This document shows, piece after piece, positions 15,132-32,375 of a stretch of DNA of 64,000 bases. A program made the position numbers and the translations under genes. The notes below the pieces were generated by a model, which saw nothing but the letters and a program-made list of their open reading frames with translations, was not told the DNA's origin and made no database searches. Origin of the DNA: a virus (taxonomy: Duplodnaviria > Caudoviricetes); the IMG/VR virus record IMGVR_UViG_3300037400_003843, positions 9,671 through 73,670 of that record, one strand, 5' to 3'. Each line of letters opens with the position of its first letter. Within the stretch, counting starts at the first letter, position 1.

Positions 15132-15216
15132 GCCCCGGTGGCGGAAGTGGTAGACGCAAATGGCTAAGGACCATTCACCGTAAGGCGTAGGAGTTCGAGT
15201 CTCCTCTGGGGCACCA
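15132..15216 (+). tRNA. trnL: tRNA-Leu, anticodon AAG
   Basis: Acceptor GCCCCGG/CTGGGGC, D stem GCG/CGC, anticodon stem AATGG/CCATT with loop CT-AAG-GA, long variable arm, T loop TTCGAGT, A73 plus encoded CCA. Confidence 0.92.
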
Positions 15217-15280
15217 CGTCGTGATGACGTTATAGTGTATTAGTATTAGTATTACTGACAGCCGGGAAAGACCGGCTCAA

Positions 15281-15365
15281 GGAAAGTTGGGGGATCGGTT
15301 TAACCCAGGCGCCCGCTACGCGCCCGTTCCGAAAGGGGCCGATGGTTCGAATCCATCACTTTCCG
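15281..15365 (+). tRNA. trnS: tRNA-Ser, anticodon GCT, atypical C33/C38
   Basis: Acceptor GGAAAGT/ACTTTCC, anticodon stem GGCGC/GCGCC with loop CC-GCT-AC, long variable arm, T loop TTCGAAT, G73, no encoded CCA. Confidence 0.8.
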
Positions 15366-15375
15366 CAGGCAATAT

Positions 15376-15440
15376 TGCCAAATAACCGCAAAGACCGGTA
15401 AAAGGAGCCGGGTCCGGATGCAAGTTCCGGAATGTTGGTA
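15376..15440 (+). ncRNA. tRNA-like element lacking an anticodon arm
   Basis: T-arm CCGGA-TGCAAGT-TCCGG, D-like hairpin ACCG/CGGT, closing stem TGCCAA/TTGGTA. Confidence 0.4.
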
Positions 15441-15526
15441 CCTAGAGATTGACAGCCGGAAAGACGGCGCCTGGGCAGGCATCGGGCCTTTTTGCCTGCC
15501 CTAAAGGGAACATAATTTTGTTTGTT

Positions 15527-15838
15527 ATGGATATAATTAATGGTATTTTTTCGGAAGCTTTCTGGTGGATTGCTCCGATTCTGATGACGCTGACGGTCGC
15601 GTTGGCGGGTGTTATCAATGGCTGGACCAAGGCGGAGGGTTTCTGGGCCCAACTGACGGCCTGGGCGGTAGGTTCCGGCCTGAGTGTTGGAGCCTGGGCG
15701 CTGAAGCTGATTGCTTTCGGCGATCCGGTATGGCTCGGCGTCGTATGTCTGTGCGTTGTTGTTGGTCTTAGCAGCAACGGCGTGTATGACATCCCTGCGA
15801 TTAAGGCTTTCGTGGACAGTTGGTTCAAGAAGGCTTAG
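15527..15838 (+). CDS. Holin-like three-helix membrane protein
   Basis: Three hydrophobic helices; GLSSNGVYD motif followed by a basic C-terminus. Confidence 0.6.
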   Translation: MDIINGIFSEAFWWIAPILMTLTVALAGVINGWTKAEGFWAQLTAWAVGSGLSVGAWALKLIAFGDPVWLGVVCLCVVVGLSSNGVYDIPAIKAFVDSWFKKA

Positions 15839-15845
15839 CTGGAAA

Positions 15846-15925
15846 GGCGGCTTAGCTCAGTCGGTAGAGCGCATCCGGTCGGCCAGTATTGGATGGGGTC
15901 GGGAGTTCGAATCTCCTCGCCGCCT
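15846..15925 (+). tRNA. tRNA-like gene with a 14-nt anticodon loop
   Basis: Acceptor GGCGGCT/CGCCGCC (one mismatch), D stem GCTC/GAGC, stem CATCC/GGATG around GGTCGGCCAGTATT, T arm GGGAG-TTCGAAT-CTCCT. Confidence 0.8.
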
Positions 15926-15963
15926 CTTGTAAGTTTAAAATTAAATTCGCATCTTTGCAATCC

Positions 15964-18778: not shown

Positions 18779-19260
18779 AGAACATTAAAGAAAAAATCAT
18801 GCAATGGTGGTACTTCCACGTGCAGAATCCGGTCGTCCGTAAGGGCGAGAGTAAGGACGGTGCGTTCAGGTGGACGTTCAGGAGATTCACAATGGACATC
18901 TCTACGCTTTCCGGTAATTTCAAGGCGAGATTCACGGCCGGCGAACATCCGTTTGCCGCTCTCTTGTCTGACGAGTCTGACAAGAACACTCCAGGCTTTG
19001 CCGAGATTCTGTACACGGTAGGTATGCTACTGACAACGGAGCAAAAATTCGCGAACGATATCCAGAACGCGATTAAGCGGTATCAAGACAGGGCTACGAA
19101 GTCTGCAAAGGTTGAGGAAGACGAAATTGAAGAGAAAATAGCGTTAGAAACCGAAAAACAGATCCAGGAGCTAGTGGATATGCCGAAGAAGGAACGGAAG
19201 AAGGTTGAGAAAAAGATTGACAGGAAGTTCAAAAAGGCGGTAAAGGATTTGGAGAAATAA
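18775..19260 (+). CDS. Hypothetical protein
   Basis: 161 aa with a coiled-coil C-terminus. Confidence 0.7.
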   Translation: MKNIKEKIMQWWYFHVQNPVVRKGESKDGAFRWTFRRFTMDISTLSGNFKARFTAGEHPFAALLSDESDKNTPGFAEILYTVGMLLTTEQKFANDIQNAIKRYQDRATKSAKVEEDEIEEKIALETEKQIQELVDMPKKERKKVEKKIDRKFKKAVKDLEK

Positions 19261-19271
19261 GAATAATTCGC

Positions 19272-19279
19272 TATCTTTG
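19272..19279 (+). promoter_or_regulatory. Sigma-A promoter of HEG cassette 1
   Basis: TATCTTTG with TTTG (-33) at 19248-51, 20-nt spacer. Confidence 0.8.
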
Positions 19280-19284
19280 CTCTT

Positions 19285-19373
19285 GCTATGTACGAGATAG
19301 CGGAAGAAATATAGGATGCTCGGATAAGTAGGTGTTTGCTCGTACCATTCACTGAAAGTTCGGGCACTTTTTT
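19285..19373 (+). ncRNA. Kissing-loop leader RNA, copy 1
   Basis: GCTAT-[GTACGAG]-ATAGC; P2 19317-25/19358-66; AAGTA/GAAA internal loop; P3 loop [CTCGTAC] at 19339-45; T-tract. Confidence 0.85.
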
Positions 19374-19380
19374 TACAAAA

Positions 19381-19956
19381 ATGAAAGAAGAAATTTGGAA
19401 GGATATTCCCGGGTATGAGGGGATATACCAAGTTAGCGATTGGGGAAGAGTTCGCTCCCTCGACATGTTCGTTCCGATAAGGGGTGGAGTGCAAACAAGG
19501 CATGGTAGAGTTTTGGTTCCATATATCAATATAGATGGATATAGAACCGTTTCCCTATGTAAAAACAAGAAGAAAAGGACTTTGAGGGTATGCAGGTTGG
19601 TCGCTATTACTTTTATTCTTAATCAGTATAATTATCCAACAGTCAATCATATAAACGAGATAAAAACAGACGATCGCGTTGAGAATCTCGAGTGGTGCAC
19701 AGTGAAATATAATTTAAATTATAGAAACCGGCGAGCAAACGCAACGGCGACAAGAAAACGAAATAAAGTCGGATTCAAGCCTGTTGAGCAATATGACCTA
19801 AGTGGCAATCTTGTTGCTGTTTACGAAAGCACAGCCGCCGCAGCCCGGGCGACCGGCTGCGGCCAAGGTTTAATTTCGAATAATTGCCTGGGAAGAACAA
19901 AAACCGCAGGCGGTTATAAATGGAAATACTTGGATGGCACAGATATTGTAGAATAA
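19381..19956 (+). CDS. NUMOD4-HNH-NUMOD1 homing endonuclease
   Basis: MKEEIWKDIPGYEGIYQVSDWGRVRS ... VNHINEIKTDDRVENLEW ... KTAGGYKWKY. Confidence 0.92.
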   Translation: MKEEIWKDIPGYEGIYQVSDWGRVRSLDMFVPIRGGVQTRHGRVLVPYINIDGYRTVSLCKNKKKRTLRVCRLVAITFILNQYNYPTVNHINEIKTDDRVENLEWCTVKYNLNYRNRRANATATRKRNKVGFKPVEQYDLSGNLVAVYESTAAAARATGCGQGLISNNCLGRTKTAGGYKWKYLDGTDIVE

Positions 19957-19973
19957 TTTTTTAAAATATTGAT

Positions 19974-20513
19974 ATGGAGCAAACCGATATTCATTTCCGT
20001 ACTGGCGGAAATATCACTCACGCTGGGATAGAGGTCCTTCCGGCCGGTCGCGATATCGAGTACATTGTACTTGAGAGCATTGAGTTTAAGGAAAGCGAGA
20101 AAATTAATGGCCGTAGCCAGGACGGCGTTTGGATAGGGCATTTCGCCCCTAATCCGTACACGTCACTCCCTTGGGTTATAAATAGCACAAATCGCCGTAG
20201 GCTCGCCAAACTCTTCCCTGAATGCGAGGGGTACCTCGCAAGGCTTCACAATGTGGCAATTCGTCTCACGAAGGAAAAAACAAGAGATCCACAAGATGGG
20301 GGAGAATGTTTTGGCCTCCGCGTAAGTCTTATTCCGGCAAAGCAGCCAGAGGCTCCCGCAAAGAAAGCTATCCAGGAGAACCAGATTCAGGCCATTGTCG
20401 ATTGGGCGAAGAAGAACGGCTACGGCATCGAGCAGATTGCTGAGAAGTACGACTTCGCTTCTGATGCGGTTAAGCAGGCCATCATTGACAAGTTGGAGGA
20501 CTTACCTGAATAG
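19974..20513 (+). CDS. Putative ssDNA-annealing/binding recombination protein
   Basis: PWVINSTNRRRL motif; lies directly upstream of the YqaJ-like exonuclease. Confidence 0.5.
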   Translation: MEQTDIHFRTGGNITHAGIEVLPAGRDIEYIVLESIEFKESEKINGRSQDGVWIGHFAPNPYTSLPWVINSTNRRRLAKLFPECEGYLARLHNVAIRLTKEKTRDPQDGGECFGLRVSLIPAKQPEAPAKKAIQENQIQAIVDWAKKNGYGIEQIAEKYDFASDAVKQAIIDKLEDLPE

Positions 20514-20515
20514 TT

Positions 20516-21274
20516 ATGGACAAAGAGCACAAATGGAGACTTGAACGATGCGGATATATTACCGCATCCATGCTTTCGGACATTACATCGAAATCTGGGA
20601 AGATTATCGACGGGAATTTGACTGCTATCCGCTCGAAGCGATTCGAACGGAAATACGGTTATCCTTTGCAAGTATCTTCGCGCACAATGGAAATCGGGAC
20701 CGAGAACGAGAAGTATGTTATCGAGTGGTTTCGTAATCAGTATCCAGACATTCCAATTATTTACGCACAGGAATTGGGTGAAAATATTCCATTTTGGAAG
20801 GTGGGTTGGGCTAAGTTCGGAGCTTCCCCAGACGCTTTCACTGAGGACGAAAGGATTGTTATAGATGCAAAGACGGTCGTAAGTAATTCCAATATCGAGT
20901 TCTTTGCTGACGAGTACACATCCTATGAGGAGAAGAAAGCAAAGGTTTGGGAAGAGCACGGCGACCAGATTTTAGGGTTATGGCTGTCTAATCCAAAGAC
21001 CGAGGAGGTCTGGATTGTTAAGCACATCTACTGCGACGAGTTCAACGAGTTCGAGCCAGCAGACCCCCTTGCCACCTGGCGCGGTCTTGTCTTCAAGTTC
21101 GCTCGGAAGGATTTCGAGGCATCTATCGCCGAGATGAAGGACCGCATTATCCTTTTCGACAAGATGATTGACGCACCTGTAGATCCTTCTCAGTTCAAGG
21201 TCGGAGAATGGAGCGTAAGGGGAGGACAACTTCATCAAGAGACCCCTATGCCGGCCGAGAAGAAAAAGAAATGA
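20516..21274 (+). CDS. YqaJ/lambda-exonuclease-like recombination nuclease
   Basis: WRLERCGYITAS, GTENE, GASPD, IDAKT (PD-(D/E)xK). Confidence 0.85.
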   Translation: MDKEHKWRLERCGYITASMLSDITSKSGKIIDGNLTAIRSKRFERKYGYPLQVSSRTMEIGTENEKYVIEWFRNQYPDIPIIYAQELGENIPFWKVGWAKFGASPDAFTEDERIVIDAKTVVSNSNIEFFADEYTSYEEKKAKVWEEHGDQILGLWLSNPKTEEVWIVKHIYCDEFNEFEPADPLATWRGLVFKFARKDFEASIAEMKDRIILFDKMIDAPVDPSQFKVGEWSVRGGQLHQETPMPAEKKKK

Positions 21275-21840
21275 GAGACCCTCTTAACAGAGCAAACGGA
21301 CCGGCTATAATTCGGCTTTATGACGCATGCTTTAAGCGTGGCGTCATTGACTCATGCGAAGCCAACGACGACTATGCTGTTCGTGAATTTATTTCCAAGC
21401 ATAAGTTTAAGTGGACCTTCGGGACGATTAAGGAGCCCGATGGCGTGGATTGGAGGTCGTTTCGTTTTATCCTTTACAGGATTGCGAGGGAAACAGGTTT
21501 AATGGGCCTTTCCGAGAACTATATCGCTATGATCCGGAAGACAAATTACCTTTGGTGCCTTCTTCCGTATTGCATGTGGTTCTATCTCATGGGCGCTCAG
21601 GAGTGGTTGGCTTACCCTTCTGCTCCGCAGATTGAAATTTTCAAGTCGCACAAGAGGGTTCACTGGGACCCAAACTGTCCGGTAAAGAAATTTACCAGAA
21701 TGGACTATATTTCATACATGCATGAGGCTTCGTTTGAGTACAGGAAGTTTGACGATGAGAATAAGCCAGTCACAGACACTCTGATGGAGAGTTATTGCAA
21801 TGCCGTTTTCGATATAACCAAAAGCTATGTCTCAAAATAA
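21271..21840 (+). CDS. Hypothetical protein
   Basis: ATGA overlap; start MRDPLN. Confidence 0.7.
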   Translation: MRDPLNRANGPAIIRLYDACFKRGVIDSCEANDDYAVREFISKHKFKWTFGTIKEPDGVDWRSFRFILYRIARETGLMGLSENYIAMIRKTNYLWCLLPYCMWFYLMGAQEWLAYPSAPQIEIFKSHKRVHWDPNCPVKKFTRMDYISYMHEASFEYRKFDDENKPVTDTLMESYCNAVFDITKSYVSK

Positions 21841-22186
21841 AATATACCGCGTTCCCCATGAGGAACCCAACGATTTTCGCTGGGATTACATTCTCTTGCC
21901 GTACGGCCAATATTACGAGAAGACTGCGGCCATACTTAGTGCTCGCCCAGGTGACACTTTGCGGTTTTTCGAGGGACGAGATGCGGAGATTAAGGGGGTT
22001 AGGCTTATCGAGGACGAAGAGCTATGCGGTATTCTCTCAAGGACGCGCTACGGCCTCCCTTGGCCCGTCGTGTTTGATCAGTGGCGAAGAGACGCTATCC
22101 TGGAAGGACATGGCGGAGGAGTCTTGCTACCACATAAGTGCATATTTGTAGCGTTTACTTACAAATGCGAAGAAAAGCAGAAATAG
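21827..22186 (+). CDS. Hypothetical protein
   Basis: 119 aa, packed in the operon. Confidence 0.65.
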   Translation: MSQNKIYRVPHEEPNDFRWDYILLPYGQYYEKTAAILSARPGDTLRFFEGRDAEIKGVRLIEDEELCGILSRTRYGLPWPVVFDQWRRDAILEGHGGGVLLPHKCIFVAFTYKCEEKQK

Positions 22187-22509
22187 CCGCACCGAAGCGG
22201 GAGATGCCTGCCGAGAGTTATGGCATCAATGCAAAGTCTGCTGAGTATATCCTATGCCCGGCAAACGCGATTGAGGATGCGTTTTACAAGCGGAATCCGG
22301 ATAATCCGTATCGCCTGAAGACCGTGGACGGAGCGGAGCACTCGGTGTTGTTCCTCTGCACATGGTTTAATCGTGGAACCATGTACGACGATGAGCTGGA
22401 GGCGACGTGCCAGAGATATTACGGCATGACTTTTGAAGGCATAAGGTCTATGTGGATAGGAAGGCTGGGTCGCGTTGACGATTACTGGCACCTTATAAAA
22501 CTTAGTTGA
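22165..22509 (+). CDS. Hypothetical protein (likely paralogue of 21827-22186)
   Basis: Shared pattern: Y-I-L-x-P near the N-terminus and an R/Y-Y-G-x-x-(W/F) helix. Confidence 0.6.
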   Translation: MRRKAEIAAPKREMPAESYGINAKSAEYILCPANAIEDAFYKRNPDNPYRLKTVDGAEHSVLFLCTWFNRGTMYDDELEATCQRYYGMTFEGIRSMWIGRLGRVDDYWHLIKLS

Positions 22510-22685
22510 TGGACGAGAAGTTGGCTATGGAGTTGTTTGAAAACGGCGAGGCATTCGGCGTTTATGTGAACATCATCCTTATGGAAGCAAATGGAATGGC
22601 GTATTTTTCGTTTGACGGCCACGAATGGCACGAAGCAGAGCATCCAGCGTTTAGGGATTGCTTAAAACAAGCTAAAAAACTATAG
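22509..22685 (+). CDS. Small hypothetical protein (58 aa)
   Basis: Manual translation MDEKLAMELFENGEAFGVYVNII...; TGATG overlap. Confidence 0.55.
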   Translation: MDEKLAMELFENGEAFGVYVNIILMEANGMAYFSFDGHEWHEAEHPAFRDCLKQAKKL

Positions 22686-22689
22686 TATT

Positions 22690-23076
22690 ATGGAAAATTC
22701 ATTATTTCCCTTAAAGTACCGCCTCCGTAAGACGGATGAGCCGGTAGAGATTGTCGCCTGGGAGACCATTGAAAAGGGCGCACGGAATGAGAATGACTGG
22801 GTGTCGTACATCGACGCCCAGGGAGTGGAGCATATCAAGGAGCATCTGACGCTCGAGTGGGATTTTGTCATCCAGACGCCGTTTGAGAAAGTGCTTGCCG
22901 GCGGGTTCGGAAGCGGCTTGGACAAGTTCGACCCGTGGGAATCGAGGCGGTATGAGCTGGTGAAGGAGATGTACATCAAGGAGTGGGATTCGGATGTAGA
23001 CTCCGACATTGATGACCTTGTCGCAATCGCTGACGAAATTATTGATGCACTGAAAAAACCGAACAATGGGCTGTAG
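22690..23076 (+). CDS. Hypothetical protein
   Basis: 128 aa; C-terminal RRYELVKE ... AVAIADEIIDALK-type helix common in phage proteins. Confidence 0.7.
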   Translation: MENSLFPLKYRLRKTDEPVEIVAWETIEKGARNENDWVSYIDAQGVEHIKEHLTLEWDFVIQTPFEKVLAGGFGSGLDKFDPWESRRYELVKEMYIKEWDSDVDSDIDDLVAIADEIIDALKKPNNGL

Positions 23077-23183
23077 TAGGATTGCCGCCGATGTGAGCCC
23101 ATGAGCCCATACTATCAGGACAGACTGAATAGGGCGACAGACCACGGGGTAATTCCCAAGGAGTGCACTAACGGCGGCGTTTT

Positions 23184-23257
23184 GGATGGGTAGCTCAGTG
23201 GTAGAGCGCGGTAAGAGTTGAGACCGTAAGTCGCGGATTCGAGTTCCGCCCCGTCCG
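23184..23257 (+). tRNA. tRNA-like gene with an enlarged (8-10 nt) anticodon loop
   Basis: Acceptor GGATGGG/CCCGTCC, D stem GCTC/GAGC, stem CGGT/ACCG around AAGAGTTGAG, T arm GCGGA-TTCGAGT-TCCGC, G73. Confidence 0.8.
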
Positions 23258-23262
23258 CAAAT

Positions 23263-23688
23263 ATGATTAACAAAGGACTATTTTCATCAAACAGCAACGA
23301 GTGGGCAACTCCGACCGACTTCTATAAGAAGCTGGACGCGGAGTTTCACTTCAATCTTGACCCGTGCTGCACGCACGAGAACGCTAAGTGTGAGAGACAC
23401 TATACTATTGAAGATGACGGACTTACGCAAAAATGGGGGGGGGCAGGAACGAGAGTGTTCTGCAATCCCCCTTACGGAAGGGAGATCGGCAAGTGGGTCA
23501 AGAAGTGCTACGAAGAGAGCAAGAACTGCGATGCCGTGGTTATGCTTATTCCGGCAAGGACAGACACGGCTTATTTCCACGACTACATCTATCACAAGGC
23601 CAAGGAGATTCGATTCATCCGTGGTCGGCTTCATTTCAACGATTCAAAGCAGGGAGCGCCGTTCCCGAGTATGGTAGTGGTATTTTGA
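23263..23688 (+). CDS. Phage N6-adenine DNA methyltransferase (Dam-type), G9 tract in frame
   Basis: EWATP, LDPC, FCNPPY, VMLIPARTDT, IRFIRGRL, APFPSMVVVF; G9 at 23435-23443. Confidence 0.9.
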   Translation: MINKGLFSSNSNEWATPTDFYKKLDAEFHFNLDPCCTHENAKCERHYTIEDDGLTQKWGGAGTRVFCNPPYGREIGKWVKKCYEESKNCDAVVMLIPARTDTAYFHDYIYHKAKEIRFIRGRLHFNDSKQGAPFPSMVVVF

Positions 23689-23689
23689 T

Positions 23690-25228
23690 ATGGCATTAGA
23701 GTTAAGAAAATACCAGGCACAGGCGGTTTCGGAAGTAAGATTTGCATTAGGGCGTTACCGTAAGGTTATGCTCCAGGCCGCTTGTGGGTTCGGCAAGACC
23801 GTTTGCTTCAGTTATATCGCTTCAAAGACGATAGAGAAGGGGCATAGAGTCCTTATCTTGTCCGACCGCTGCGAGATTCTGACGCAGAACGGTGGCGCAT
23901 TGGAGAAGATGGGCACCCAAGTCGAGTATGTCACTCCGAAGAACAAGAAGGTGCCGACCGGAATGTGTATCGTCTGTATGGCACAAACCCTTCGGCGAAG
24001 AATCGAAAAGCAAGAGTGGCTGGATTGGTTGCAAACGGTCGATTTTGTGGTTATTGATGAAGCACATTCTTGTAGTACGGACTTTATCCATCCGTATCTG
24101 CGCGAGAACGTATGGCTTCTGGGTTGCTCGGCTACGCCTGCCAGGAGAAGCCACCAAAAGCAGCTCTGCGAAATTTACAGGGCGATGGTTACGACCATAT
24201 CGACGAAGGAACTTATTGCTCTCGGATATCTATCAAAGTCGAACCACTATTCGATTATAGCCCCTTCTCTGGACGGATTGAATATAGATTCCGGCACCGG
24301 CGACTATAACCGCAAGCAACTTGCGATGCGCTTCGAGAATAAGGCTATCTATACCGGCATTGTGGATGAGTATATGCGACTGACTCCGCATAAGAGGGCT
24401 ATCTGCTTCTGTGTATCGGCGAAACAGGCTATTGAGCAGACGAAGATATTTAATGAGCGTGGAATATCGGCCAAGTATGTATTATCCGGCTCCTTTGATA
24501 GCGATGATACTTACAGCGGCAAGCGAAGCGATGTATTTCAAGACTTCAAAGACCACAAGTTCGAGGTGCTGGTTAATGTAGGTGTTGCAGTCGCAGGATT
24601 CGATCAAAAGGACATCGAAGTCGTAATCCTCAACTTCGCTACGGTATCCATTACAAGGTATCTACAGGCGACCGGTCGCGGTTCCAGAGTGACGGATACA
24701 AAGCACGAGTTTACGGTGCTTGATGCCGGCCGAAACTTCGCCAAGTTCGGAGTTTATGAGGCAGACCGTCAGTGGAGCCTACAACACGACGAGCATTCTT
24801 CGTCAGGCGTGATGGCAATGAAGATATGCGACACGACGAAGAAGGACTGTAACGGACATTATGGCTGCGGTCGCCTTGTTCCGACGACGCTAAAGATCTG
24901 CAAGGAATGTGGCTATGTCTTTCGCACTGCGGAGTATGAGTATCAGCTACACCTGGAAAAGGTTCAAGAGGAGAACTCAGAGGATAGCATCGAGGCTTTC
25001 GCTGCAAAAAAACGCGCAGAAGGGTGGAAGCTAAACAGAATTTGCGTTGCTGTTGGTCTAAGGGAACCCGATAGGGCAAGGCGAGCAGTAATGACCGCTT
25101 ATCTTGCTTGCTGCCCTGACAAGACAGAAGCGGACGCGAGGAAGTTCTGGTTTGTTTTTGAAAACAATGTATGGAAGAATGTCAAGCATAAGCGAAAAAA
25201 TGACAATGATGCTTCTTTGTTCCAATAA
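23690..25228 (+). CDS. SF2 DEAD/DEAH-box helicase with C-terminal zinc ribbon
   Basis: LRKYQ, GFGKT, IDEAH, SATP, GFD, QATGRGSR, CGRL...CKECG. Confidence 0.92.
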   Translation: MALELRKYQAQAVSEVRFALGRYRKVMLQAACGFGKTVCFSYIASKTIEKGHRVLILSDRCEILTQNGGALEKMGTQVEYVTPKNKKVPTGMCIVCMAQTLRRRIEKQEWLDWLQTVDFVVIDEAHSCSTDFIHPYLRENVWLLGCSATPARRSHQKQLCEIYRAMVTTISTKELIALGYLSKSNHYSIIAPSLDGLNIDSGTGDYNRKQLAMRFENKAIYTGIVDEYMRLTPHKRAICFCVSAKQAIEQTKIFNERGISAKYVLSGSFDSDDTYSGKRSDVFQDFKDHKFEVLVNVGVAVAGFDQKDIEVVILNFATVSITRYLQATGRGSRVTDTKHEFTVLDAGRNFAKFGVYEADRQWSLQHDEHSSSGVMAMKICDTTKKDCNGHYGCGRLVPTTLKICKECGYVFRTAEYEYQLHLEKVQEENSEDSIEAFAAKKRAEGWKLNRICVAVGLREPDRARRAVMTAYLACCPDKTEADARKFWFVFENNVWKNVKHKRKNDNDASLFQ

Positions 25229-25252
25229 TAATTCTTATATTTGCATAGTGAA

Positions 25253-25345
25253 ACTCGTATGACGGACGAGTGATAGAAATATAAAAGCCCCGGACAAGTA
25301 GGATAGTGCCGTCATCGCTATTTGAAAATTCGGGGTCTTTGTTTT
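25253..25345 (+). ncRNA. Kissing-loop leader RNA, copy 2
   Basis: Promoter TATATTTG at 25236-43; ACTCGT-[ATGACGG]-ACGAGT; P2 25287-95/25328-36; AAGTA/GAAA; P3 loop [CCGTCAT] at 25309-15. Confidence 0.85.
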
Positions 25346-25348
25346 ACT

Positions 25349-26512
25349 ATGATAGAAGAAGTTTGGAGCAATATATCTTGGGCGCCAGGATATATGGTCA
25401 GCACGCTTGGAAATGTAAGAAGTCTAAATTGGCGCAGGCAGGGCATAGCAAAGAATTTAATTCCGCGCCCGTCTGGCCGTGGATACCTCCAAGTATCTAT
25501 TCGGGTTAATAATACTCCCATCCGTGTTTATGTTCACAGGCTTGTCGCGGAGGCTTTTATAGATAACCCTAATGGATATCCACAGGTAAACCATAAGGAC
25601 GAGAATAAAACCAATAATAGAGTTGACAACCTTGAATGGTGTGACGGGTCCTATAATCAAAATTATGGCACAGTTAAGGAAAGGAGGCGTAGGACAAATG
25701 TCGGGAGAGGAAATATTTGTGCTGGAACACCCGTTTGCCAATACTCGTTGGATGGGGATTTTATTAGGGAGTACGCCACGATATCGGAAGCTCAAGAGAT
25801 TTCTGGTATAAATAGCATAGGTTCTGCAGTAAACGGAAAGGCTAAGCAAATGGGCGGTTTTATTTGGAGAAGAAAGGGAGAGGACGTCGGGGAGATTGAC
25901 TTCGATAGATATTCTCTTCATCACGCAAGACCGGTTAAGCAATACTCTCTTCGCGGGGATGAATTGGCCTCGTTTCTTTCTATTAAGGATGCCTCTGAAA
26001 CAACTGGTATACAGAGATTATCAATCATCAATTGCGCGAGGGGGAAATTTAGAACCGCTGGCGGCTATGTATGGAGGTATTGCGATGAAGAACACCACCC
26101 AAACAATATTAGGAGGGAATTCGAGTTTATGACAGACGAATTACACGATGTGCGTGGTTTTCATGGCGAATATAAGGTTAATAAACGCGGAGAAGTAATA
26201 AGCATGAATTTTCTGTCTACGAATCGGCTAGGAATAATGGAGGGTTATACTACAAAACGGGGATTTAGGGGGATAAATATGACAAAGGATGGAATTGCCT
26301 ACAGGAAATTGATTTGCATAATTGTAGCGCAATCTTTCATCCCGAATCCGAGCGGTTTTTCTTGTATTGAGCATATTGATGGGTGCCTTACTAATGACAA
26401 TGTGTCCAATTTACGATGGGTCCGCGGAAAGCGTGACAGAACAGACCTTGTCTGGCTCCGTAGCGTTAAAGATAAAGTGAGCGATGCGGACTCCTCGCCG
26501 AAACTGCTTTAG
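25349..26512 (+). CDS. Homing endonuclease with tandem NUMOD4-HNH modules and two NUMOD1 domains
   Basis: [22 protein letters not shown] ... [18 protein letters not shown]; two NUMOD1 repeats; second module [12 protein letters not shown] ... [18 protein letters not shown]. Confidence 0.88.
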
Positions 26513-26515
26513 AGT

Positions 26516-27247
26516 ATGGAGATAAAAGGAAAGGTTTGGTGCATGTTCGAGCAGAGCGGCACCTTTAAGAATGAGTTTAAGAAGCTCGGATACGACGCGG
26601 TTGACCTGGATATCCAAAACAACTTCGGCGAGACGGATTATCAGATAGATTTGTTCGCGGAGATAGAAAAAGCATATAGGGGGGGGTGGCAAAGTGTTTT
26701 TGATTCAATCACTTACGATGATTTAATTATGGCGTTTTTCCCTTGTATACATTTCTGCGATTTTAAAACGCTCTATTTTTTGGGAGTGAATATCGGACAA
26801 AAAGGGAAGCCCCTGCACGAACTTATGCGTCAAAATATAGAATTTGCAAAGCAGAGGGAAGCCTTCTTTTACACGCTGATGGAATTTGTCGCAGTGTGTT
26901 CATCCAGGGGACTCCGCCTTATAATTGAAAACCCTTATAATTCCAGCGGAATGACATATCTTGAAAATAACTTCATCCGCCCTACGATTATAGACAAAAA
27001 TAGGATGACGCGCGGGGATTATTACGTCAAACCGACTGGTTACTGGTTTGTGAATTGCGCCCCTACGTACGGATTTACGGAGCAGAGAGACAAGAGGCAG
27101 AAGACTATAATGAAGGCAAAGATGAGGGCCAAGCCGGGAGTCTGCAACGAGGAAAGGTCCATGATTTCCCCCGACTACGCACGCAACTTCATCTGCGACT
27201 TCATCCTCGGCAAGGAGCAGGCATTTTCGGAACCGAAACTGTTTTAG
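26516..27247 (+). CDS. C5-cytosine DNA methyltransferase-like protein, G8 tract in frame
   Basis: FEQSG (motif I-like), FFPC (catalytic PC), IIENP (motif VI-like), KPTGYW; G8 at 26679-26686. Confidence 0.7.
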   Translation: MEIKGKVWCMFEQSGTFKNEFKKLGYDAVDLDIQNNFGETDYQIDLFAEIEKAYRGGWQSVFDSITYDDLIMAFFPCIHFCDFKTLYFLGVNIGQKGKPLHELMRQNIEFAKQREAFFYTLMEFVAVCSSRGLRLIIENPYNSSGMTYLENNFIRPTIIDKNRMTRGDYYVKPTGYWFVNCAPTYGFTEQRDKRQKTIMKAKMRAKPGVCNEERSMISPDYARNFICDFILGKEQAFSEPKLF

Positions 27248-27275
27248 TGGCACGGGATTTGCAGGTGTAACGGTT

Positions 27276-27470
27276 ATGAGACAAGCAGACATAAATAGAG
27301 TAAAGAAGGCGCAGTCTCACATTGAGTCGGCGCGAATTCTCCTGCAAAACATAAAGTGGGAGAATCTATCGACGATTGAAGACACCTGCCGCAGCAATGC
27401 GTATGATGGGCTCAAATCGGCGGAGTATGGATTGATAGACATGGTTAATTGTGATGGGCATCGAGATTAG
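27276..27470 (+). CDS. Hypothetical protein
   Basis: 64 aa ORF. Confidence 0.55.
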   Translation: MRQADINRVKKAQSHIESARILLQNIKWENLSTIEDTCRSNAYDGLKSAEYGLIDMVNCDGHRD

Positions 27471-27503
27471 ACGGAATAGTCCCAAGAAAAGCGAATACGA
27501 GAA

Positions 27504-27746
27504 ATGATACACAAATGTTTGCAATACTGGCTGCAGTCCGCTGACGAGTCTGGTGTGCATGTGCATCCGCAGATACAGATGGAACGGCTCGGCCTAGGCA
27601 ACTACTACCGTGGCATTCCAGTAACAATATGCGACTGCTGGCTCTTTCTCTTCGAGCAATGGCCGGATATAGAACTGCCGAGTTACATTGTGAAGAAGGA
27701 ATTGGATGACGAGAAGTTTCCCGTATTAAAACCGAGACAGAAATGA
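27504..27746 (+). CDS. Hypothetical protein
   Basis: 80 aa; ATGA overlap with the next gene. Confidence 0.55.
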   Translation: MIHKCLQYWLQSADESGVHVHPQIQMERLGLGNYYRGIPVTICDCWLFLFEQWPDIELPSYIVKKELDDEKFPVLKPRQK

Positions 27747-28063
27747 AACTACTTAGAGATAAAACAATTGACGTTTTGGATTCGGTATTGGCTGAAATTC
27801 AACTCAGGGAATGGGAGGCACGCAAAAGTCACGAGTTTAGGTTCGCTGATGGGCTGAATTCTGCGTGGAGATTCCTTGCCGATATGCACGCAGAATATGT
27901 AAACCAGAAGGCGAAAAGAAATCCGATATTTAGGTGGAGAATTTGGCTGAGATATAAAAAGGCCAGCAAAGAAATAAGGGATGTCGTACCGGCAGAAAAG
28001 GTCGGCGACGAGTATATTATAAGGCTTAAATTGCATAAACCCAAACCCATTGATAGCCTATGA
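27743..28063 (+). CDS. Hypothetical protein
   Basis: 106 aa; ATGA overlaps. Confidence 0.6.
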   Translation: MKLLRDKTIDVLDSVLAEIQLREWEARKSHEFRFADGLNSAWRFLADMHAEYVNQKAKRNPIFRWRIWLRYKKASKEIRDVVPAEKVGDEYIIRLKLHKPKPIDSL

Positions 28064-28203
28064 CCATCGAAGAATACAAGGCCCAGCCGTTCAAGGACGC
28101 GACCATCGGAGACTGGTGGAGCACCTTTGACCGCAGGACTCGCCGTGAGATAGAGCGGATTGTCAAGAAGGGGAAGAACCCGGATATAATGAACTATATT
28201 TGA
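28060..28203 (+). CDS. Small hypothetical protein (47 aa)
   Basis: Manual translation MTIEEYKAQPFKDATIGDWW... Confidence 0.55.
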   Translation: MTIEEYKAQPFKDATIGDWWSTFDRRTRREIERIVKKGKNPDIMNYI

Positions 28204-28394
28204 GTGATATGACAGACCGAGAGATAATGCACAAGCTGCTTGACGAGATCCTTGATTCCGGAAATCACGTAGCGATTCACACAGAGTTTTTCCCGGGGAT
28301 TCCCGGAAAGATACCTGCACTACAAAAGAATTATAGACTTGAGATAAAAGAAGCCTCATTCACAGTTAAAAAACAGAGTTATGACCATCAATGA
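28200..28394 (+). CDS. Hypothetical protein
   Basis: 64 aa; GTGA overlap. Confidence 0.55.
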   Translation: MSDMTDREIMHKLLDEILDSGNHVAIHTEFFPGIPGKIPALQKNYRLEIKEASFTVKKQSYDHQ

Positions 28395-28533
28395 ATACAA
28401 AGGCAAGTTCCTCGACCTTCTCGAGGAGATGCAGAAGGAGCACGGTGTGGTTCATTTTGTGCATATCGAACAGAATCTTGATATGCTTCCAGAAGGAGTT
28501 CCTCTTGTCACGAGCGTAACAATCGAATTCTAA
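28381..28533 (+). CDS. Small protein (50 aa), paralogue A
   Basis: MTINEYKGKFLDLLEEMQKEHGVVHFVHIE...VTIEF. Confidence 0.6.
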   Translation: MTINEYKGKFLDLLEEMQKEHGVVHFVHIEQNLDMLPEGVPLVTSVTIEF

Positions 28534-28534
28534 T

Positions 28535-28678
28535 ATGACACTATTAGAATACAAGAAAGCATTCTCCGATTTGCATGAGCAGTTGGAGAAGGAATATGGC
28601 ACCAAGGCTGAGGTGCATATTTACGAGGAGAAAGAAACATACGGCCGATGGGTAACAACGATAGAAATCAAGTTCTGA
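28535..28678 (+). CDS. Small protein (47 aa), paralogue B
   Basis: MTLLEYKKAFSDLHEQLEKEYGTKAEVHIYE...IEIKF. Confidence 0.6.
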   Translation: MTLLEYKKAFSDLHEQLEKEYGTKAEVHIYEEKETYGRWVTTIEIKF

Positions 28679-28753
28679 TATGCCAATCATTGAGACCCCG
28701 CCGCATTTTCTCTTCCAAATAATTTTGCTATCTTTGCGAAAAATCGTGATAAT

Positions 28754-28954
28754 ATGAGACTTGAATTTACCGGCACTCCGCTGGAGTACGCACAGAGCCT
28801 TACTGAAAAGGAGCTGAAGAAGGTCATCCGCGATTGCAAGAAAGGCAATTACGACGAATTTACGGATCGCTGCCGTCTTTGTTTTGAGCACTATCTTGCT
28901 GGAAACGAGACCATGGCCAAGTGGTGGAGCAATCACGCCGAGCTGGTGAAATGA
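28754..28954 (+). CDS. Hypothetical protein
   Basis: 66 aa; TATCTTTG promoter at 28729-36. Confidence 0.6.
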   Translation: MRLEFTGTPLEYAQSLTEKELKKVIRDCKKGNYDEFTDRCRLCFEHYLAGNETMAKWWSNHAELVK

Positions 28955-29358
28955 TATTAGAGACTCCGGAGCGGCCTAAGAAGCGGGGCCATTCGATGCC
29001 AGAGGGAAAAATCCAGGCAGAATGCTATCAGCATTTCTGGAACACTTACCCGCAGTATCGAGGCCTCTATTTTGCTGTACCGAACGAAAACAACCGGGCA
29101 GACTCAAACGCAATCACCGGCGCTATCCGCAGGTCTATGGGTGTATATCATGGCGTATCTGACACGCTTATGCTTATCCCTCGCGGGCCATATCATGGAC
29201 TTTGCATCGAATACAAGGACGAGAAGGGCCGGCAGTCAGAGCACCAGATAGCTTGGCAAAAGCTCGTCGAGTCGCAGGGATACGCTTATCGGGTCTGCCG
29301 CAGTTTAGAACAATTTAAAATTATCGTTGGCGAATACTTCGCTTTGCATCATGCCTAA
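28951..29358 (+). CDS. VRR-NUC domain nuclease (Holliday-junction resolvase-like)
   Basis: EGKIQAEC, FAVPNE, GVSDTLML, GLCIEYKDEKGRQSEHQIAWQ. Confidence 0.88.
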   Translation: MILETPERPKKRGHSMPEGKIQAECYQHFWNTYPQYRGLYFAVPNENNRADSNAITGAIRRSMGVYHGVSDTLMLIPRGPYHGLCIEYKDEKGRQSEHQIAWQKLVESQGYAYRVCRSLEQFKIIVGEYFALHHA

Positions 29359-29974
29359 AAACACTATCATACCGATGCGGCCGGATGGATTCAATTCGAG
29401 TCTCACCCAGGGCGAGCAGACCTGTCTCACATGGTTGGTCCTCTCTGGTTGCTCCAAAGAGGATGCCTTTATCCTTTTCGCTCGGCCAGATATGGCAGAA
29501 TCAAGGGCCAGGGCCGTAGTGAAGGAGACCATCAAGCAGTTCTATGCCAGGGCCGAGGTAAAGGAATACCTCACGGCGTACAGGACGACTCTGGAGGACC
29601 TGGTTAACCAGAAGCGAAAGGAAAAGGAGCCGGTCTGCACAGGCACGCTCGAGGAAAGGAAGGCTCGCGCAAAGACCAGAGCAACAGAGTTTGCCATGTC
29701 ACTAGCTGAAAATATTGACCAGGCAGATGACCCTGAATATGTTCTCAAACTTATGGACAAAGTCGGTCTCCTCGACGCGGAAGAGCAGGTAGAAGAGCAG
29801 CCGAGAAGGTATATTCCTCAATCTTGTTTGGACGGCTGCAGGTATAGGATGTTTGTTGAAGAGAACTGTGAAGACGAATGCCAATTTTGTCGATACAAAA
29901 AGTATGGCGAGGAAAATGGCGTACATTTCAAAAACGAGGAAATGCTAGATATCCCACAAAAAGTTGTGGAATAA
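29351..29974 (+). CDS. Putative terminase small subunit
   Basis: Helical N-terminal DNA-binding-like region and coiled coil; upstream of terL once the HEG insertions are discounted; called mainly on position. Confidence 0.45.
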   Translation: MPKNTIIPMRPDGFNSSLTQGEQTCLTWLVLSGCSKEDAFILFARPDMAESRARAVVKETIKQFYARAEVKEYLTAYRTTLEDLVNQKRKEKEPVCTGTLEERKARAKTRATEFAMSLAENIDQADDPEYVLKLMDKVGLLDAEEQVEEQPRRYIPQSCLDGCRYRMFVEENCEDECQFCRYKKYGEENGVHFKNEEMLDIPQKVVE

Positions 29975-29998
29975 ACAAATAATTGCTATCTTTGTATT

Positions 29999-30090
29999 GC
30001 TATGGACGAGATAGCTATTTAGATACATAAAGCCCTGGATTAGTAGGCGCGAGCTCGTCCCTCCGTTGAAAGTTCAGGGCGCTTTGTTTT
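29999..30090 (+). ncRNA. Kissing-loop leader RNA, copy 3
   Basis: Promoter TATCTTTG at 29987-94; GCTAT-[GGACGAG]-ATAGC; P2 30032-40/30072-80; TAGTA/GAAA; P3 loop [CTCGTCC] at 30054-60. Confidence 0.85.
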
Positions 30091-30093
30091 CAA

Positions 30094-31059
30094 ATGAGAG
30101 TAAGAGATATTGTTATCGGGGAACGATACAAGGATATCCTTGTTGTAGGCCCCAAGTATCGAAAGAACAGGGCAACATATTACGGTTGTCAGTGTATGCG
30201 ATGTGGGAAAATTTACGAAATGCGTAATGATCATATCGGAAATTCTACGTGTTGTGCTGATTGTTTTCCGAAGGACAACATTGTTGATTTATCTGGGAAA
30301 AGATTCGGCCGTCTTGTTGCATTAAAGTATGTTGGGCGAAATAACGATAGGTCTTTATGGCGGTGTATTTGTGATTGCGGTAAAGAATCTATTACTGGAT
30401 ACTCGAATCTTGTAAGCGGGAACACCCGCTCTTGCGGATGCCTTGAGAAAGAAAATCTTGCGTATATTCAAAAGCATTCTTGCCGCAGAAAATCGGCGTC
30501 AAAGGAATTTAAACAAACTTTATCCGAACACCCTCTATATGGTTTATGGTCCTCAATGCTCACAAGGTGCTACAACAAATCACGCAACTCTTATAAGCAT
30601 TATGGCGGAAGAGGAATAAAAGTTTGCGACAGGTGGCTTCCAGAGAATAAGGGGTTCGAGAACTTCTTAAATGATATGGGGCCGAGACCGAGTATTGAAT
30701 ATACTCTTGATAGAATAGATAATGAAGGAGATTATTGCCCAGAGAACTGTAGGTGGGCGACGCCAAGACAACAGGGCAGTAATAAGCGAACAAGTATAAT
30801 TTTATTCTATAAGGGGGCGAGAATTCCCGCTTTGGATGTATGCGAGGCGACTGGGCTAAAATATCAAACTCTATCGCATCAACTAAAGAGAGGATACGAT
30901 ATAAACATAATTATAGAGAATAAGGGCGCAGACTTTCGCCAAGGCAAATACAAGAAAAATCTTGACGCTATTAAAACAGGAAACAGAAATATTACTATCT
31001 TTGTGCCAGAGTTAGAATCCGATGGCACGGAACTTGCAGAAGAAAATCCGACTGAATAG
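30094..31059 (+). CDS. HNH-type homing endonuclease (Cys-rich, non-NUMOD4 class)
   Basis: DLSGKRFGRLVA, WRCICDCG, SCGCL, WSSMLTRC, YGGRGIKVCDRW, TLDRIDNEGDYCPENCRWAT. Confidence 0.88.
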   Translation: MRVRDIVIGERYKDILVVGPKYRKNRATYYGCQCMRCGKIYEMRNDHIGNSTCCADCFPKDNIVDLSGKRFGRLVALKYVGRNNDRSLWRCICDCGKESITGYSNLVSGNTRSCGCLEKENLAYIQKHSCRRKSASKEFKQTLSEHPLYGLWSSMLTRCYNKSRNSYKHYGGRGIKVCDRWLPENKGFENFLNDMGPRPSIEYTLDRIDNEGDYCPENCRWATPRQQGSNKRTSIILFYKGARIPALDVCEATGLKYQTLSHQLKRGYDINIIIENKGADFRQGKYKKNLDAIKTGNRNITIFVPELESDGTELAEENPTE

Positions 31060-31130
31060 TCGTGTCCATTGCTTCTTGGGCGGTGAAGAATAGTAGCCGC
31101 CTTTTTTATGAAACTTTTTTGTTATATTAT

Positions 31131-31427
31131 ATGGAAATTAAAGGAAGAGTCTTAGAGAAGCCCGCATCAAAGACGGGCGTTTCATCTAGAGGCCCCTGGA
31201 AAAGGGCGCAGTTGGTAATCCGTTATGAGGACGGGCAATACCCTAAGGATATTCTCCTGTCGAATATGAACAAGGCGGAAGAATTTGAGCGCATCCCGAT
31301 TGGCGCGACGGGAACATTTAAATTTGACGGCAGTGTTCGGGGAAAAGACGGGAATTACTATCTCGACCTAAACTGCTGGTCTTGGACGCTTGATCAGGCT
31401 GCACCTGGCAGCGCGGATCCGATTTAG
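31131..31427 (+). CDS. DUF3127-family SSB-like protein
   Basis: MEIKGRV ... GVSSRGPWKR ... QYPKDI ... YLDLNCW; typical of Bacteroidetes. Confidence 0.8.
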   Translation: MEIKGRVLEKPASKTGVSSRGPWKRAQLVIRYEDGQYPKDILLSNMNKAEEFERIPIGATGTFKFDGSVRGKDGNYYLDLNCWSWTLDQAAPGSADPI

Positions 31428-31465
31428 TTTGGAAAATCCAAAATCTTTTCCTATCTTTGTGGTAC

Positions 31466-31556
31466 GGTAAGGTCCAGTTACCACAGATAGAAACCTAAAG
31501 CCCCACAACGAGTAGGCGCGTGCTGGACCCACCGCCGAAAGTTGTGGGGTATTTTG
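31466..31556 (+). ncRNA. Kissing-loop leader RNA, copy 4
   Basis: Promoter TATCTTTG at 31452-59 with TTTG at 31428-31; GGTAA-[GGTCCAG]-TTACC; P2 31500-09/31541-50; GAGTA/GAAA; P3 loop [CTGGACC] at 31523-29. Confidence 0.85.
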
Positions 31557-31563
31557 TAGTATT

Positions 31564-32334
31564 ATGCCTTGGAAGAGATTAACAAGAGAGGAATTTATTC
31601 AGAGAGCAAAAGCCGTAAATGGGGATGCGTATAATTATGACCTAATCGAATATGAGGGGATGACGAAGAAGATTCATGTAGTCGGGATGGACGGCGAGTT
31701 CGATATATGGCCTTATAATTTTTTAAGAAGGCGCGGACCGCAGACAAAAAATAAGCCTGGATGGAAGGGAGATAGGAGGAGGCCGCTTTACGGTGTTGGA
31801 ATAAACGACGAATTTGGGGTTACGAGAACACCGGCATATAGGAAATGGGCCGGTATCATCGAGCGGTGCTATAAGCCAAATAGAGGGAAACGCTATCCGG
31901 CATATGTTGGCTGCTCAATCTGTGACGAATGGAAATATTTTTCTTGTTTCAGGCGATGGTTTGAAAAGAATTCTATACCCGGTTATGATTTGGATAAAGA
32001 TATATTGAAGCAAGGTAATCGTGTTTATTGCCCAGAGTATTGCTGTTTTGTTCCGAGAGAAATTAACCTTCTAATTTCTGGGCTAAATATTAAACGCAAG
32101 GACAACTTGCCAGTTGGCGTTTGTTACTCGGGGAGCAAGAAGAACCCCTATGTTGTAAGATTAAAATGCCAGAAAAGGACTATTCATGTTGGATTGTTTA
32201 AGACAGCAGAAGACGCATCTGCCGAATACAAGAAAATAAAAAAAGGAGAAATAATTCGAGTCGCAAACGAATATTTCAAAGACGGGAAAATATCAGAAAG
32301 AGTCTACAATGCACTCTTGTCCTTTGAAGTTTGA
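31564..32334 (+). CDS. HNH/AP2-type homing endonuclease
   Basis: YGVGIND, WAGIIERCY, YVGCSICDEWKYFSCF, LDKDIL, YCPEYCCFVPREIN, LPVGV, AP2-like IHVGLFKTAEDA. Confidence 0.85.
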   Translation: MPWKRLTREEFIQRAKAVNGDAYNYDLIEYEGMTKKIHVVGMDGEFDIWPYNFLRRRGPQTKNKPGWKGDRRRPLYGVGINDEFGVTRTPAYRKWAGIIERCYKPNRGKRYPAYVGCSICDEWKYFSCFRRWFEKNSIPGYDLDKDILKQGNRVYCPEYCCFVPREINLLISGLNIKRKDNLPVGVCYSGSKKNPYVVRLKCQKRTIHVGLFKTAEDASAEYKKIKKGEIIRVANEYFKDGKISERVYNALLSFEV

Positions 32335-32375
32335 AATTATGCAAGTATTTTTTATCTTTGCATCAAATTGGTAAA

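Follow-up and report, generated by a model that had tools for sequence, protein, structure and literature searches.

T-even phages restrain their homing endonuclease genes through promoter choice, intrinsic terminators and leader hairpins (Edgell, Gibb and Belfort, 2010; PMC2988022). Both mobE and segF have intrinsic terminators in their 5′ regions, with ∼ 30% termination at mobE, and hairpins precede I-TevI/II/III, segB, Aeh1 mobE and seg43(25) (PMC2988022). The control of free-standing homing endonuclease genes is known in detail only for such T4-like coliphages, with one simple hairpin per gene. The 64,000-nt window that we analysed, part of a complete 73.7-kb phage genome, carries four copies of one ∼ 95-nt leader whose surroundings resemble the T-even arrangement. 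A dedicated promoter and a stable hairpin just before the start codon are combined with a terminator (here a terminator-like element), a restart promoter serves the next essential gene (terL here, nrdB in T4), and cis elements would again hold down free-standing or intron-encoded homing endonuclease genes. The hairpins of T4 are simple and gene-specific, sequester the Shine-Dalgarno site and have the promoter inside them. In contrast, the leader represents a single conserved family that combines a pseudoknot with a putative bulged-G motif and is found ahead of unrelated genes in phages of Shine-Dalgarno-independent hosts. Its promoter lies wholly upstream of the first hairpin (H1) and thus of the whole fold, and its start region, the ATG with the tail before it, is unpaired in all four predicted folds; promoter-in-hairpin and start-site sequestration mechanisms of the T-even type were rejected on these two grounds. 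A single conserved RNA family may serve this purpose, or one akin to it, across three or more nuclease families in Bacteroidales-type phages, whose host group starts translation without Shine-Dalgarno pairing.

The order of parts is the same in each copy: a Bacteroidota-type promoter, the 5′-terminal hairpin H1 with its loop L1, an A-rich linker, a long hairpin (P2 and P3, with apical loop L2) containing an AGUA/GAA internal loop, a U tract and the ATG. All features lie on the + strand. The copy 1 promoter (19248-19279) consists of a -33 TTTG (19248-19251) and the -7 box TATCTTTG (19272-19279). Its leader (19285-19380) starts with H1 (19285-19301; L1, 19290-19296) and the linker, continues with P2 (19318-19324/19359-19365), the internal loop (19325-19330/19354-19358), P3 (19331-19338/19346-19353) and L2 (19339-19345), and ends in the U-rich tail (19366-19380) before a NUMOD4-HNH_3-NUMOD1 homing endonuclease gene (19381-19956, 191 aa). 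Copy 2 has its promoter at 25216-25243 (-33 TTTG; -7 box TATATTTG, 25236-25243) and its leader at 25253-25348, made up of H1 (25253-25271; L1, 25259-25265), P2 (25287-25294/25329-25336), internal loop (25295-25300/25324-25328), P3 (25301-25308/25316-25323), L2 (25309-25315) and tail (25337-25348); a NUMOD4/HNH_3/NUMOD1 endonuclease of 387 aa follows (25349-26512). The copy 3 promoter (29963-29994) has a -33 (G)TTG and the -7 box TATCTTTG (29987-29994). The leader (29999-30093) contains H1 (29999-30015; L1, 30004-30010), P2 (30032-30039/30073-30080), internal loop (30040-30045/30068-30072), P3 (30046-30053/30061-30067), L2 (30054-30060) and tail (30081-30093), and the gene (30094-31059) encodes a 321-aa HNH endonuclease of the PHROG 374 class with no Pfam match. 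Copy 4 comprises a promoter (31428-31459; -33 TTTG; -7 box TATCTTTG, 31452-31459), a leader (31466-31563) with H1 (31466-31482; L1, 31471-31477), P2 (31500-31509/31541-31550), internal loop (31510-31514/31537-31540), P3 (31515-31522/31530-31536), L2 (31523-31529) and tail (31551-31563), and a gene for a 256-aa HNH endonuclease of the PHROG 953/374 class (31564-32334). Just past this cassette lie the restart promoter and terL start (32353-32378), with a -7 box TATCTTTG at 32353-32360 and the true large terminase ATG at 32376. The -33 element (TTTG; GTTG in copy 3) is 16-20 nt 5′ of each -7 box. The first-pass annotation had described four nuclease genes that each begin with a TAnnTTTG promoter and the same fold; all four copies were found, with -7 boxes starting at 19272, 25236, 29987 and 31452. 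The four genes are all HNH-type nucleases, of two families. The core motif occurs four times in the window compared with 0.02 expected from shuffles, and a covariance-model scan of the whole phage genome matched precisely these four copies.

In the window copies a 7-nt loop caps both H1 (5-6 bp) and P3 (7-8 positions), P2 is 7-10 bp long, the internal loop reads nAGUA/GAA(A/G), and the U-rich tail keeps a fixed spacing of 12-15 nt from P2 to the ATG. These are the parts named in the first-pass annotation, whose ranges for P2 (9-10 bp) and the tail (13-14 nt) were slightly too narrow; its loop pairs are exact, L1 and L2 being perfect reverse complements in every copy (GTACGAG/CTCGTAC, ATGACGG/CCGTCAT, GGACGAG/CTCGTCC and GGTCCAG/CTGGACC). 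ViennaRNA recovered P2/P3 in all four copies and H1 in copies 1-3; the stretch folded for copy 4 began inside H1. The linker, 12-17 nt long, is conserved and AGAAAUAU-like. Flanked by helices, with AGUA in its 5′ strand facing GAA in its 3′ strand, the internal loop has the sequence signature of a bulged-G (sarcin-ricin/loop E) motif. Rfam 15 (4227 models) reached the gathering score only for tRNAs in the whole window, and even at E ≤ 10 the region 19000-32000 returned one tRNA and no ribozyme, riboswitch or HEARO. The leader was not found in GenBank phages by BLAST, and we found no paper describing it. It is an undescribed RNA family, as had been suspected, and a well-defined candidate for Rfam.

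Pattern scans and covariance models, two of each, yielded a set of 44 distinct leaders on other viral contigs of IMG/VR. Fifteen loop codes occur among them, each complementary at 7/7 positions. The loop-loop (kissing) helix is Watson-Crick in 308/308 cells, with no G-U, and both sides have changed in 6/7 of its pairs. Standard pairs occupy 92.8% of cells in the 44 leaders, compared with 67.4% in shuffles and 36-44% for slid partners; the covariation score is 0.679, compared with 0.20 and 0.09-0.11 respectively. All four helices covary well beyond these controls, and on a tree made without the L1 and L2 columns each change in one loop has its exact counterpart in the other. These data confirm the initial proposal of a real, covarying RNA fold with loop-loop pairing, and the support for the pseudoknot is unusually clean. 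The stability of the kissing duplex is confined to a narrow range (4-5 G+C, −8.5 to −11.3 kcal/mol), and AGTAG and the AA of GAA, in a motif that adjoins P3, are invariant (44/44 leaders). Pattern matches without the rest of the fold (∼ 17 in IMG/VR and 120 in bacterial and archaeal genomes) never had the complementary upstream 7-mer. The further proposal that distinct codes insulate the cassettes from each other was not supported, since the loop columns evolve no faster than the other stems on the same tree and two codes in this genome are one pair apart.

In our judgement the chances are about even that the leader is a cis-acting 5′ attenuator that doses expression of its gene. The -7 box is upstream of H1 in 44/44 leaders, with 2-9 nt between the two in nearly every case. 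Transcription would start from the host-type promoter (-33 TTTG, -7 TAnnTTTG) a few bases before H1, which would place this hairpin at the 5′ terminus of the transcript. The 3′ domain has the features of an intrinsic terminator or attenuator, namely a stable hairpin (mean folding energy −21 kcal/mol, range −15 to −29, in the 44 leaders), a G+C-rich base and a U tract (on average 5.6 of the 9 bases after the domain), although some tracts are interrupted and in many copies a gap of 1-5 nt separates them from the stem. It is also in the position expected of an attenuator, between promoter and gene start, its U-rich tract ending 4-6 nt before the ATG. An attenuator or translational switch had been among the first suggestions, and it fits this anatomy. 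We infer that P2, the bulged-G loop and P3 would form the terminator hairpin, that the dose of nuclease would be set by the share of transcripts that continue beyond hairpin and U tract into the gene, and that the 7-bp Watson-Crick kiss between the apical loop and H1 may tune this passage. By rough estimate rather than a computed model, a straight stack of H1, kiss, P3, loop E and P2 would be ∼ 90 Å long, a distance that the 12-17 nt linker barely spans; a cis kiss formed as P3 emerges should therefore put the base of P2 under tension and promote read-through. No consensus restart promoter was found after cassettes 1 and 2, so the genes past them must be transcribed through the leader, which therefore cannot be a tight terminator. 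Pairing of promoter-derived RNA with the linker, examined by inspection, showed no covariation. In cobalamin riboswitches the L5-L13 kissing loop likewise pairs an upstream loop with the apical loop of the expression platform and decides the output, as the leader kiss may do on its expression-platform-like hairpin; unlike the riboswitch, the leader has only a 17-19 nt hairpin as its upstream element, no visible ligand domain and no Rfam riboswitch match. In any case, the leader links a terminator-like hairpin to a programmable 7-bp kissing loop within one compact natural RNA.

A simple hairpin would suffice for attenuation. The conserved linker, the invariant AGUAG/GAA and a kiss restricted to Watson-Crick pairs point to a tertiary fold or a partner for which the attenuator model gives no account. 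One possibility, which we consider unlikely, is that the terminated ∼ 95-nt RNA, from H1 to the U tract, is itself the product, a discrete sRNA that would act as scaffold, decoy or concentration sensor, with the gene expressed solely by read-through. Two molecules would associate hand in hand, L1 of one with L2 of the other and reciprocally, giving an antiparallel homodimer of two side-by-side 32-bp rods held by two 7-bp kisses, with loop E and the linker as packing surfaces. Although each molecule carries two complementary loops, kissing in cis with P2 fully formed would require the linker to cover the whole stack, a strain that the dimer geometry should remove completely. The pairing of all seven loop bases, the lack of G-U and the narrow stability resemble the trans-acting, fully complementary 7-nt kissing loops of ColE1 RNA I/RNA II, and φ29 pRNA offers a precedent for loops that are complementary within a molecule, covary between relatives and pair between molecules, the first two of which hold for the leader. 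In ColE1, however, the loops belong to two RNAs, whereas both leader loops are on one strand of a ∼ 95-nt RNA and there is no antisense transcript; unlike pRNA, the leader has no tie to a packaging motor, copy 4 alone adjoining terL. In L089 an intact leader stands ahead of a decayed nuclease remnant, as expected if the RNA were the product. Against this, no free-standing copy was found, every copy abutting an ATG at fixed spacing, and the codes, which evolve no faster than the other stems, give no sign of selection against cross-pairing; two of them in this genome are one pair apart. If this reading is true, selfish gene cassettes would carry a small natural complex made of RNA alone, and competition between kiss and terminator would act as a mechanical switch of an undescribed kind. 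The leader lends itself to direct tests of how a tertiary contact tunes termination or RNA dimerisation.

We give a similarly low probability to a role as mRNA stabiliser and context insulator, in which the 5′ hairpin, locked to the apical loop, would shield the transcript from 5′-end-dependent decay and the U/A-rich start would be kept unpaired wherever the cassette lands, making translation constitutive and context-independent. The placement of H1 at the predicted 5′ end, the location of the ATG, together with the preceding 12-15 nt, outside every helix, and the occurrence of the cassette in many unrelated flanks are consistent with this, and Bacteroidota, which start translation without Shine-Dalgarno pairing, need unstructured A-rich starts. 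It leaves unexplained the U tract right after a G+C-rich stem as well as the conserved loop E and linker, and selfish nuclease genes are usually held down, which makes an expression enhancer on them hard to account for.

A small self-cleaving ribozyme or a ligand-sensing riboswitch, with pseudoknot, loop E and linker as active site or pocket, is less probable still. Size and information content are within the range of small ribozymes and aptamers, and the hairpin and U tract could be an expression platform. The pistol ribozyme has the same order of parts (5′ hairpin, A-rich linker, P2, internal loop, P3), a pseudoknot from its first loop, and likewise occurs in phage-rich sequence. However, the pistol pseudoknot reaches the P2-P3 junction, whereas its partner in the leader is the P3 apical loop; no conserved pistol nucleotides were found, no Rfam ribozyme or riboswitch matched at E ≤ 10, and a pistol assignment was rejected. 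As for a riboswitch, P2 is conserved fold and terminator stem at once, so no typical alternative pairing is visible, and the genes have no metabolic link.

Relatives either have promoter, leader and gene together or lack all three. The whole copy 3 cassette is missing from L037 and the whole copy 4 cassette from L037 and L040, and homology blocks start ∼ 25 nt ahead of the leader and end ∼ 20 nt inside the gene. Near-identical leaders head nucleases of unrelated families at one site, and the genes behind the leader in the family comprise three nuclease families, one DNA methyltransferase and one unknown 69-aa gene. The best explanation is that the leader is part of mobile promoter-leader-gene cassettes in a clade of uncultured Bacteroidales-type phages, the portable module that the first-pass annotation had inferred, and it marks such cassettes in their genomes. 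Three further HNH genes in this phage and 44 related HNH loci elsewhere have no such leader, which is therefore not a general companion of HNH genes. A nuclease-binding RNA (antitoxin, scaffold, cofactor or guide, by analogy with ToxI or OMEGA/HEARO), an early suggestion with which the known protein binding of bulged-G motifs and the nuclease gene adjoining every window copy are consistent, is highly improbable given these leaderless HNH genes, the unrelated nucleases, methyltransferase and unknown gene behind the leader, and its persistence before the L089 remnant. ToxI-like type III antitoxins were rejected, as the four sites have no tandem arrays and the proteins are HNH DNA endonucleases, and OMEGA/HEARO likewise, as no HEARO matched at E ≤ 10, the proteins are of NUMOD4/HNH_3/NUMOD1 or PHROG HNH classes with no RuvC or IscB-type protein, and the RNA is only ∼ 95 nt long. 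In keeping with a terminator-like 3′ domain, cassette-less L037 has at the copy 4 site a terminator made of a plain GNRA hairpin and U7, which has a 14-nt string in common with the 3′ end of the copy 4 leader.

Each of the nuclease genes starting at 19381, 25349, 30094 and 31564 (cassettes 1-4) is preceded by the same ordered parts, as the first-pass annotation had described, and in 4/4 copies each of the two loops, L1 and L2, is the exact reverse complement of the other, with four different sequences. The promoter of each copy combines a -33 TTTG element, which reads GTTG in copy 3, with a TAnnTTTG box at -7. Hairpin H1 (5-6 bp, 7-nt loop L1) starts 4-9 nt after the -7 box and is joined by an A-rich linker to stem P2 (7-10 bp). 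An internal loop with nAGUA on its 5' side and GAA(A/G) on its 3' side leads into P3 (7-8 positions, closed by the 7-nt loop L2), and a U-rich tail of 12-15 nt precedes the ATG. ViennaRNA folded copies 1-3 into H1 plus P2/P3 and copy 4, whose input began inside H1, into P2/P3. A K-turn identity of the internal loop was ruled out, since its sequence departs from the K-turn consensus and fits AGUA/GAA instead. In the window the core motif was counted four times, where 0.02 occurrences are expected. The source record is a complete 73,670-bp virus with terminal repeats (the window being its bases 9671-73670), and a covariance model gave exactly four matches in the whole phage genome, the window copies.

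Two pattern scans of IMG/VR and searches with two covariance models yielded 44 distinct leaders: besides the four in the window there are 40, spread over about 40 other viral contigs, and a genome has 1-4 copies; the scan patterns were derived from the window copies, and more distant members may exist. The 44 leaders carry 15 loop codes (L1/L2 sequence pairs), all complementary at 7/7 positions. Core-pattern matches lacking the rest of the fold (~17 in IMG/VR, at least 120 in bacterial and archaeal genomes) served as controls. A complementary upstream 7-mer was present in 0 of the ~17 IMG/VR matches. When 185,579 species genomes were scanned with the pattern, none of the matches listed (at least 120 loci) had the loop-loop (kissing) pairing; this serves as a control only and does not show prophages to be free of the leader. 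Pairs were counted on a MAFFT alignment of the 44 leaders (A9) built without reference to the structure. Standard pairs fill 92.8% of cells, compared with 67.4% after shuffling and 36-44% when the partner is slid by 1-3 columns; 99% of cells are paired in H1, 100% in the kiss, 89% in P2 and 86% in P3. The covariation score of 0.679 (0.20 shuffled, 0.09-0.11 with the partner slid by 1-3 columns) and the kiss, in which 308/308 cells are Watson-Crick with zero G-U, bear out the proposal of a covarying fold with loop-loop pairing. Both sides change in 6/7 kiss pairs, and in a tree computed with the loop columns left out, L2 exactly mirrors the parsimony changes counted along L1 (2, 5, 8, 5, 5, 1 and 0). 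The kiss is narrowly tuned, with 4-5 G+C in every copy and a bare duplex of -8.5 to -11.3 kcal/mol, and AGUAG and the AA of GAA are unchanging throughout the family alignment. A negative correlation between linker length and stem length proved to be an artefact of the cut-off of contiguous pairing and is uninformative. Two further candidates were dropped, being confined to some copies and showing no covariation: a promoter sequence that repeats the 5' strand of H1 (a 'decoy'), and pairing between the linker and promoter-derived RNA.

The first-pass annotation had not recognised the leader as a named RNA family. Consistent with this, Rfam 15 reports only tRNAs, whether the whole window is scanned at the gathering score or 19000-32000 at E ≤ 10. 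A full-text literature search returned no account of such an RNA, and BLAST of two leaders against 50,697 GenBank phage records gave no match. Searched with covariance model R2 at E ≤ 10, 44 loci in viral contigs whose NUMOD4-HNH genes are related (26-51% identity) showed no match, and the cultured Parabacteroides phage PF672P1 gave no leader match. The single match in Bacteroides LoVEphage, likewise cultured (18.9 bits), lies inside coding sequence and was dismissed as a leader. That the family is real and structured is strongly supported, and it is not publicly described.

The predicted promoter lies such that the transcript would begin at H1. Across the family the 3' domain folds into a hairpin averaging -21 kcal/mol, stable and G+C-rich at its base; behind it come a U-rich tract (on average 5.6 of 9 nt are U), a short A-rich stretch and then the ATG, and the start region is left unpaired. 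This 3' domain has the anatomy of an intrinsic terminator placed between promoter and gene. At the empty copy-4 site of the relative L037 (L037:9376-9450), a plain GNRA hairpin with U7 separates the upstream gene from the terminase promoter. A 14-nt string in it, CGAAAGTTGTGGGG, recurs at the 3' end of the leader of copy 4. This site adds support to the terminator reading; the hairpin may be what a lost cassette left behind, or the terminator half of the leader may derive from it. In T-even phages several devices restrain the homing endonuclease genes: promoter choice, leader hairpins and intrinsic terminators, the last within the 5' end of segF and of mobE, where termination is ~30%; the essential gene that comes next is served by a restart promoter (PMC2988022). 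Similarly, a new TATCTTTG box follows cassettes 3 and 4, at 30996 and 32353, and the latter serves the terminase, the ATG at 32376 being its true start. There is no TATCTTTG restart box behind cassettes 1 and 2, so the leader must be leaky or conditional. We regard the leader as a new structural form of the known restraint of selfish nuclease genes through their leaders, with a mechanism that we infer: it would act in cis as an attenuator between a host-type promoter and the gene.

The kiss would be the tuning element of this attenuator. With all seven loop bases paired, H1, kiss and P3 would stack end to end, and the linker, leaving H1 at the far tip, would have to reach the base of P2 across 32-35 stacked layers (~90 Å). 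Single-stranded RNA of 12-17 nt, as in the linker, would barely reach that far, if at all, and thus either a kiss in cis should strain the P2 base or the kiss should join two molecules. In the first case the kiss, made once P3 emerges, would strain the part of P2 that matters for termination and so favour read-through. The main rival is a dimeric small RNA, with an antiparallel arrangement that would take away the linker strain. However, no leader was found standing free, and each copy runs up to an ATG at a constant distance; for this reason the cis-acting attenuator is ranked first.

An RNA working with the nuclease protein, another role that had been suggested, is countered by the variety of genes behind the leaders, by the lack of tandem leader repeats at the four sites and by the absence of RuvC/IscB-type proteins. 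The genes of copies 1 and 2 encode NUMOD4/HNH_3/NUMOD1 endonucleases; for those of copies 3 and 4 Pfam gave no hit, and they match PHROG HNH families 374 and 953. Of 39 distinct downstream proteins scanned across the family, 25 are PHROG 59 NUMOD4-HNH and 11 are PHROG 374-class HNH; an endonuclease VII-like protein, an N6/N4 DNA methyltransferase and an unknown 69-aa protein account for one each. The leaders ahead of the non-nuclease genes are at L058:5160-5994 (minus strand; methyltransferase) and L077:3731-4051 (69-aa ORF). Two more leaders, for which a first-ATG parse gave spurious short frames, also head NUMOD4-type genes. Three further HNH_3 genes in the same phage genome have no leader, which is therefore not a companion of every HNH gene.

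The view of the leader as a portable module gains support from these mixed downstream genes, from whole-unit absences and from homology blocks. Cassettes 3 and 4 are missing as whole units (promoter, leader and gene) in relatives with ~75% terminase identity. Elsewhere, upstream gene, promoter and leader are homologous until ~20 nt into the ORF, where homology breaks to resume past the gene; near-identical leaders thus head unrelated proteins at one site (NUMOD4-HNH in L062, endonuclease VII-like in L084). In other locus pairs the common block spans only about -25 to +119, between otherwise unrelated flanks. The idea that distinct loop codes insulate the cassettes from one another is not supported: on the tree the kiss columns undergo 5-8 changes, roughly the same number as P2 and P3, which also rules out diversifying selection on the codes, and two codes within this phage genome are one pair apart.

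The large terminase is closest to that of Parabacteroides phages (38% identity), then of Bacteroides and Phocaeicola phages, in agreement with the Bacteroidota-type promoter. At L089:7795-8060 all that remains of the nuclease gene is its C-terminal DNA-binding tail; the leader ahead of it is intact, with an A-A mismatch closing H1. This cassette is decaying, and its leader has outlived the gene. Another HNH_3 gene, at 13519-13977, lies in a co-directional gene array with its start overlapping the end of the preceding gene; with neither promoter box nor leader, it is a promoter-less cassette, unlike cassettes 1-4. Four tRNA genes (Leu-aag, Ser-gct, Pro-cgg and Ser-tga) were located by ARAGORN at 15132-15926 and 23184-23258; Rfam reports three. 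A second type of leader, family B, lies at 406-524 (minus strand; L031:1795-1913) ahead of another NUMOD4-HNH gene of this phage, and a second copy lies outside the window ahead of one more such gene (about L032:1870-1990, minus strand). After the TAnnTTTG box the family B transcript starts with AGCAGGA in one copy and AGCGGA in the other, and these bases pair with the loop of a big hairpin (UCCUGCU and UCCGCU). The 3' strand of this hairpin recurs directly before the ATG, a repeat that would allow alternative pairing. Family B also has a hairpin loop, AGUAGCUA, which has AGUAG in common with the leader family of cassettes 1-4.
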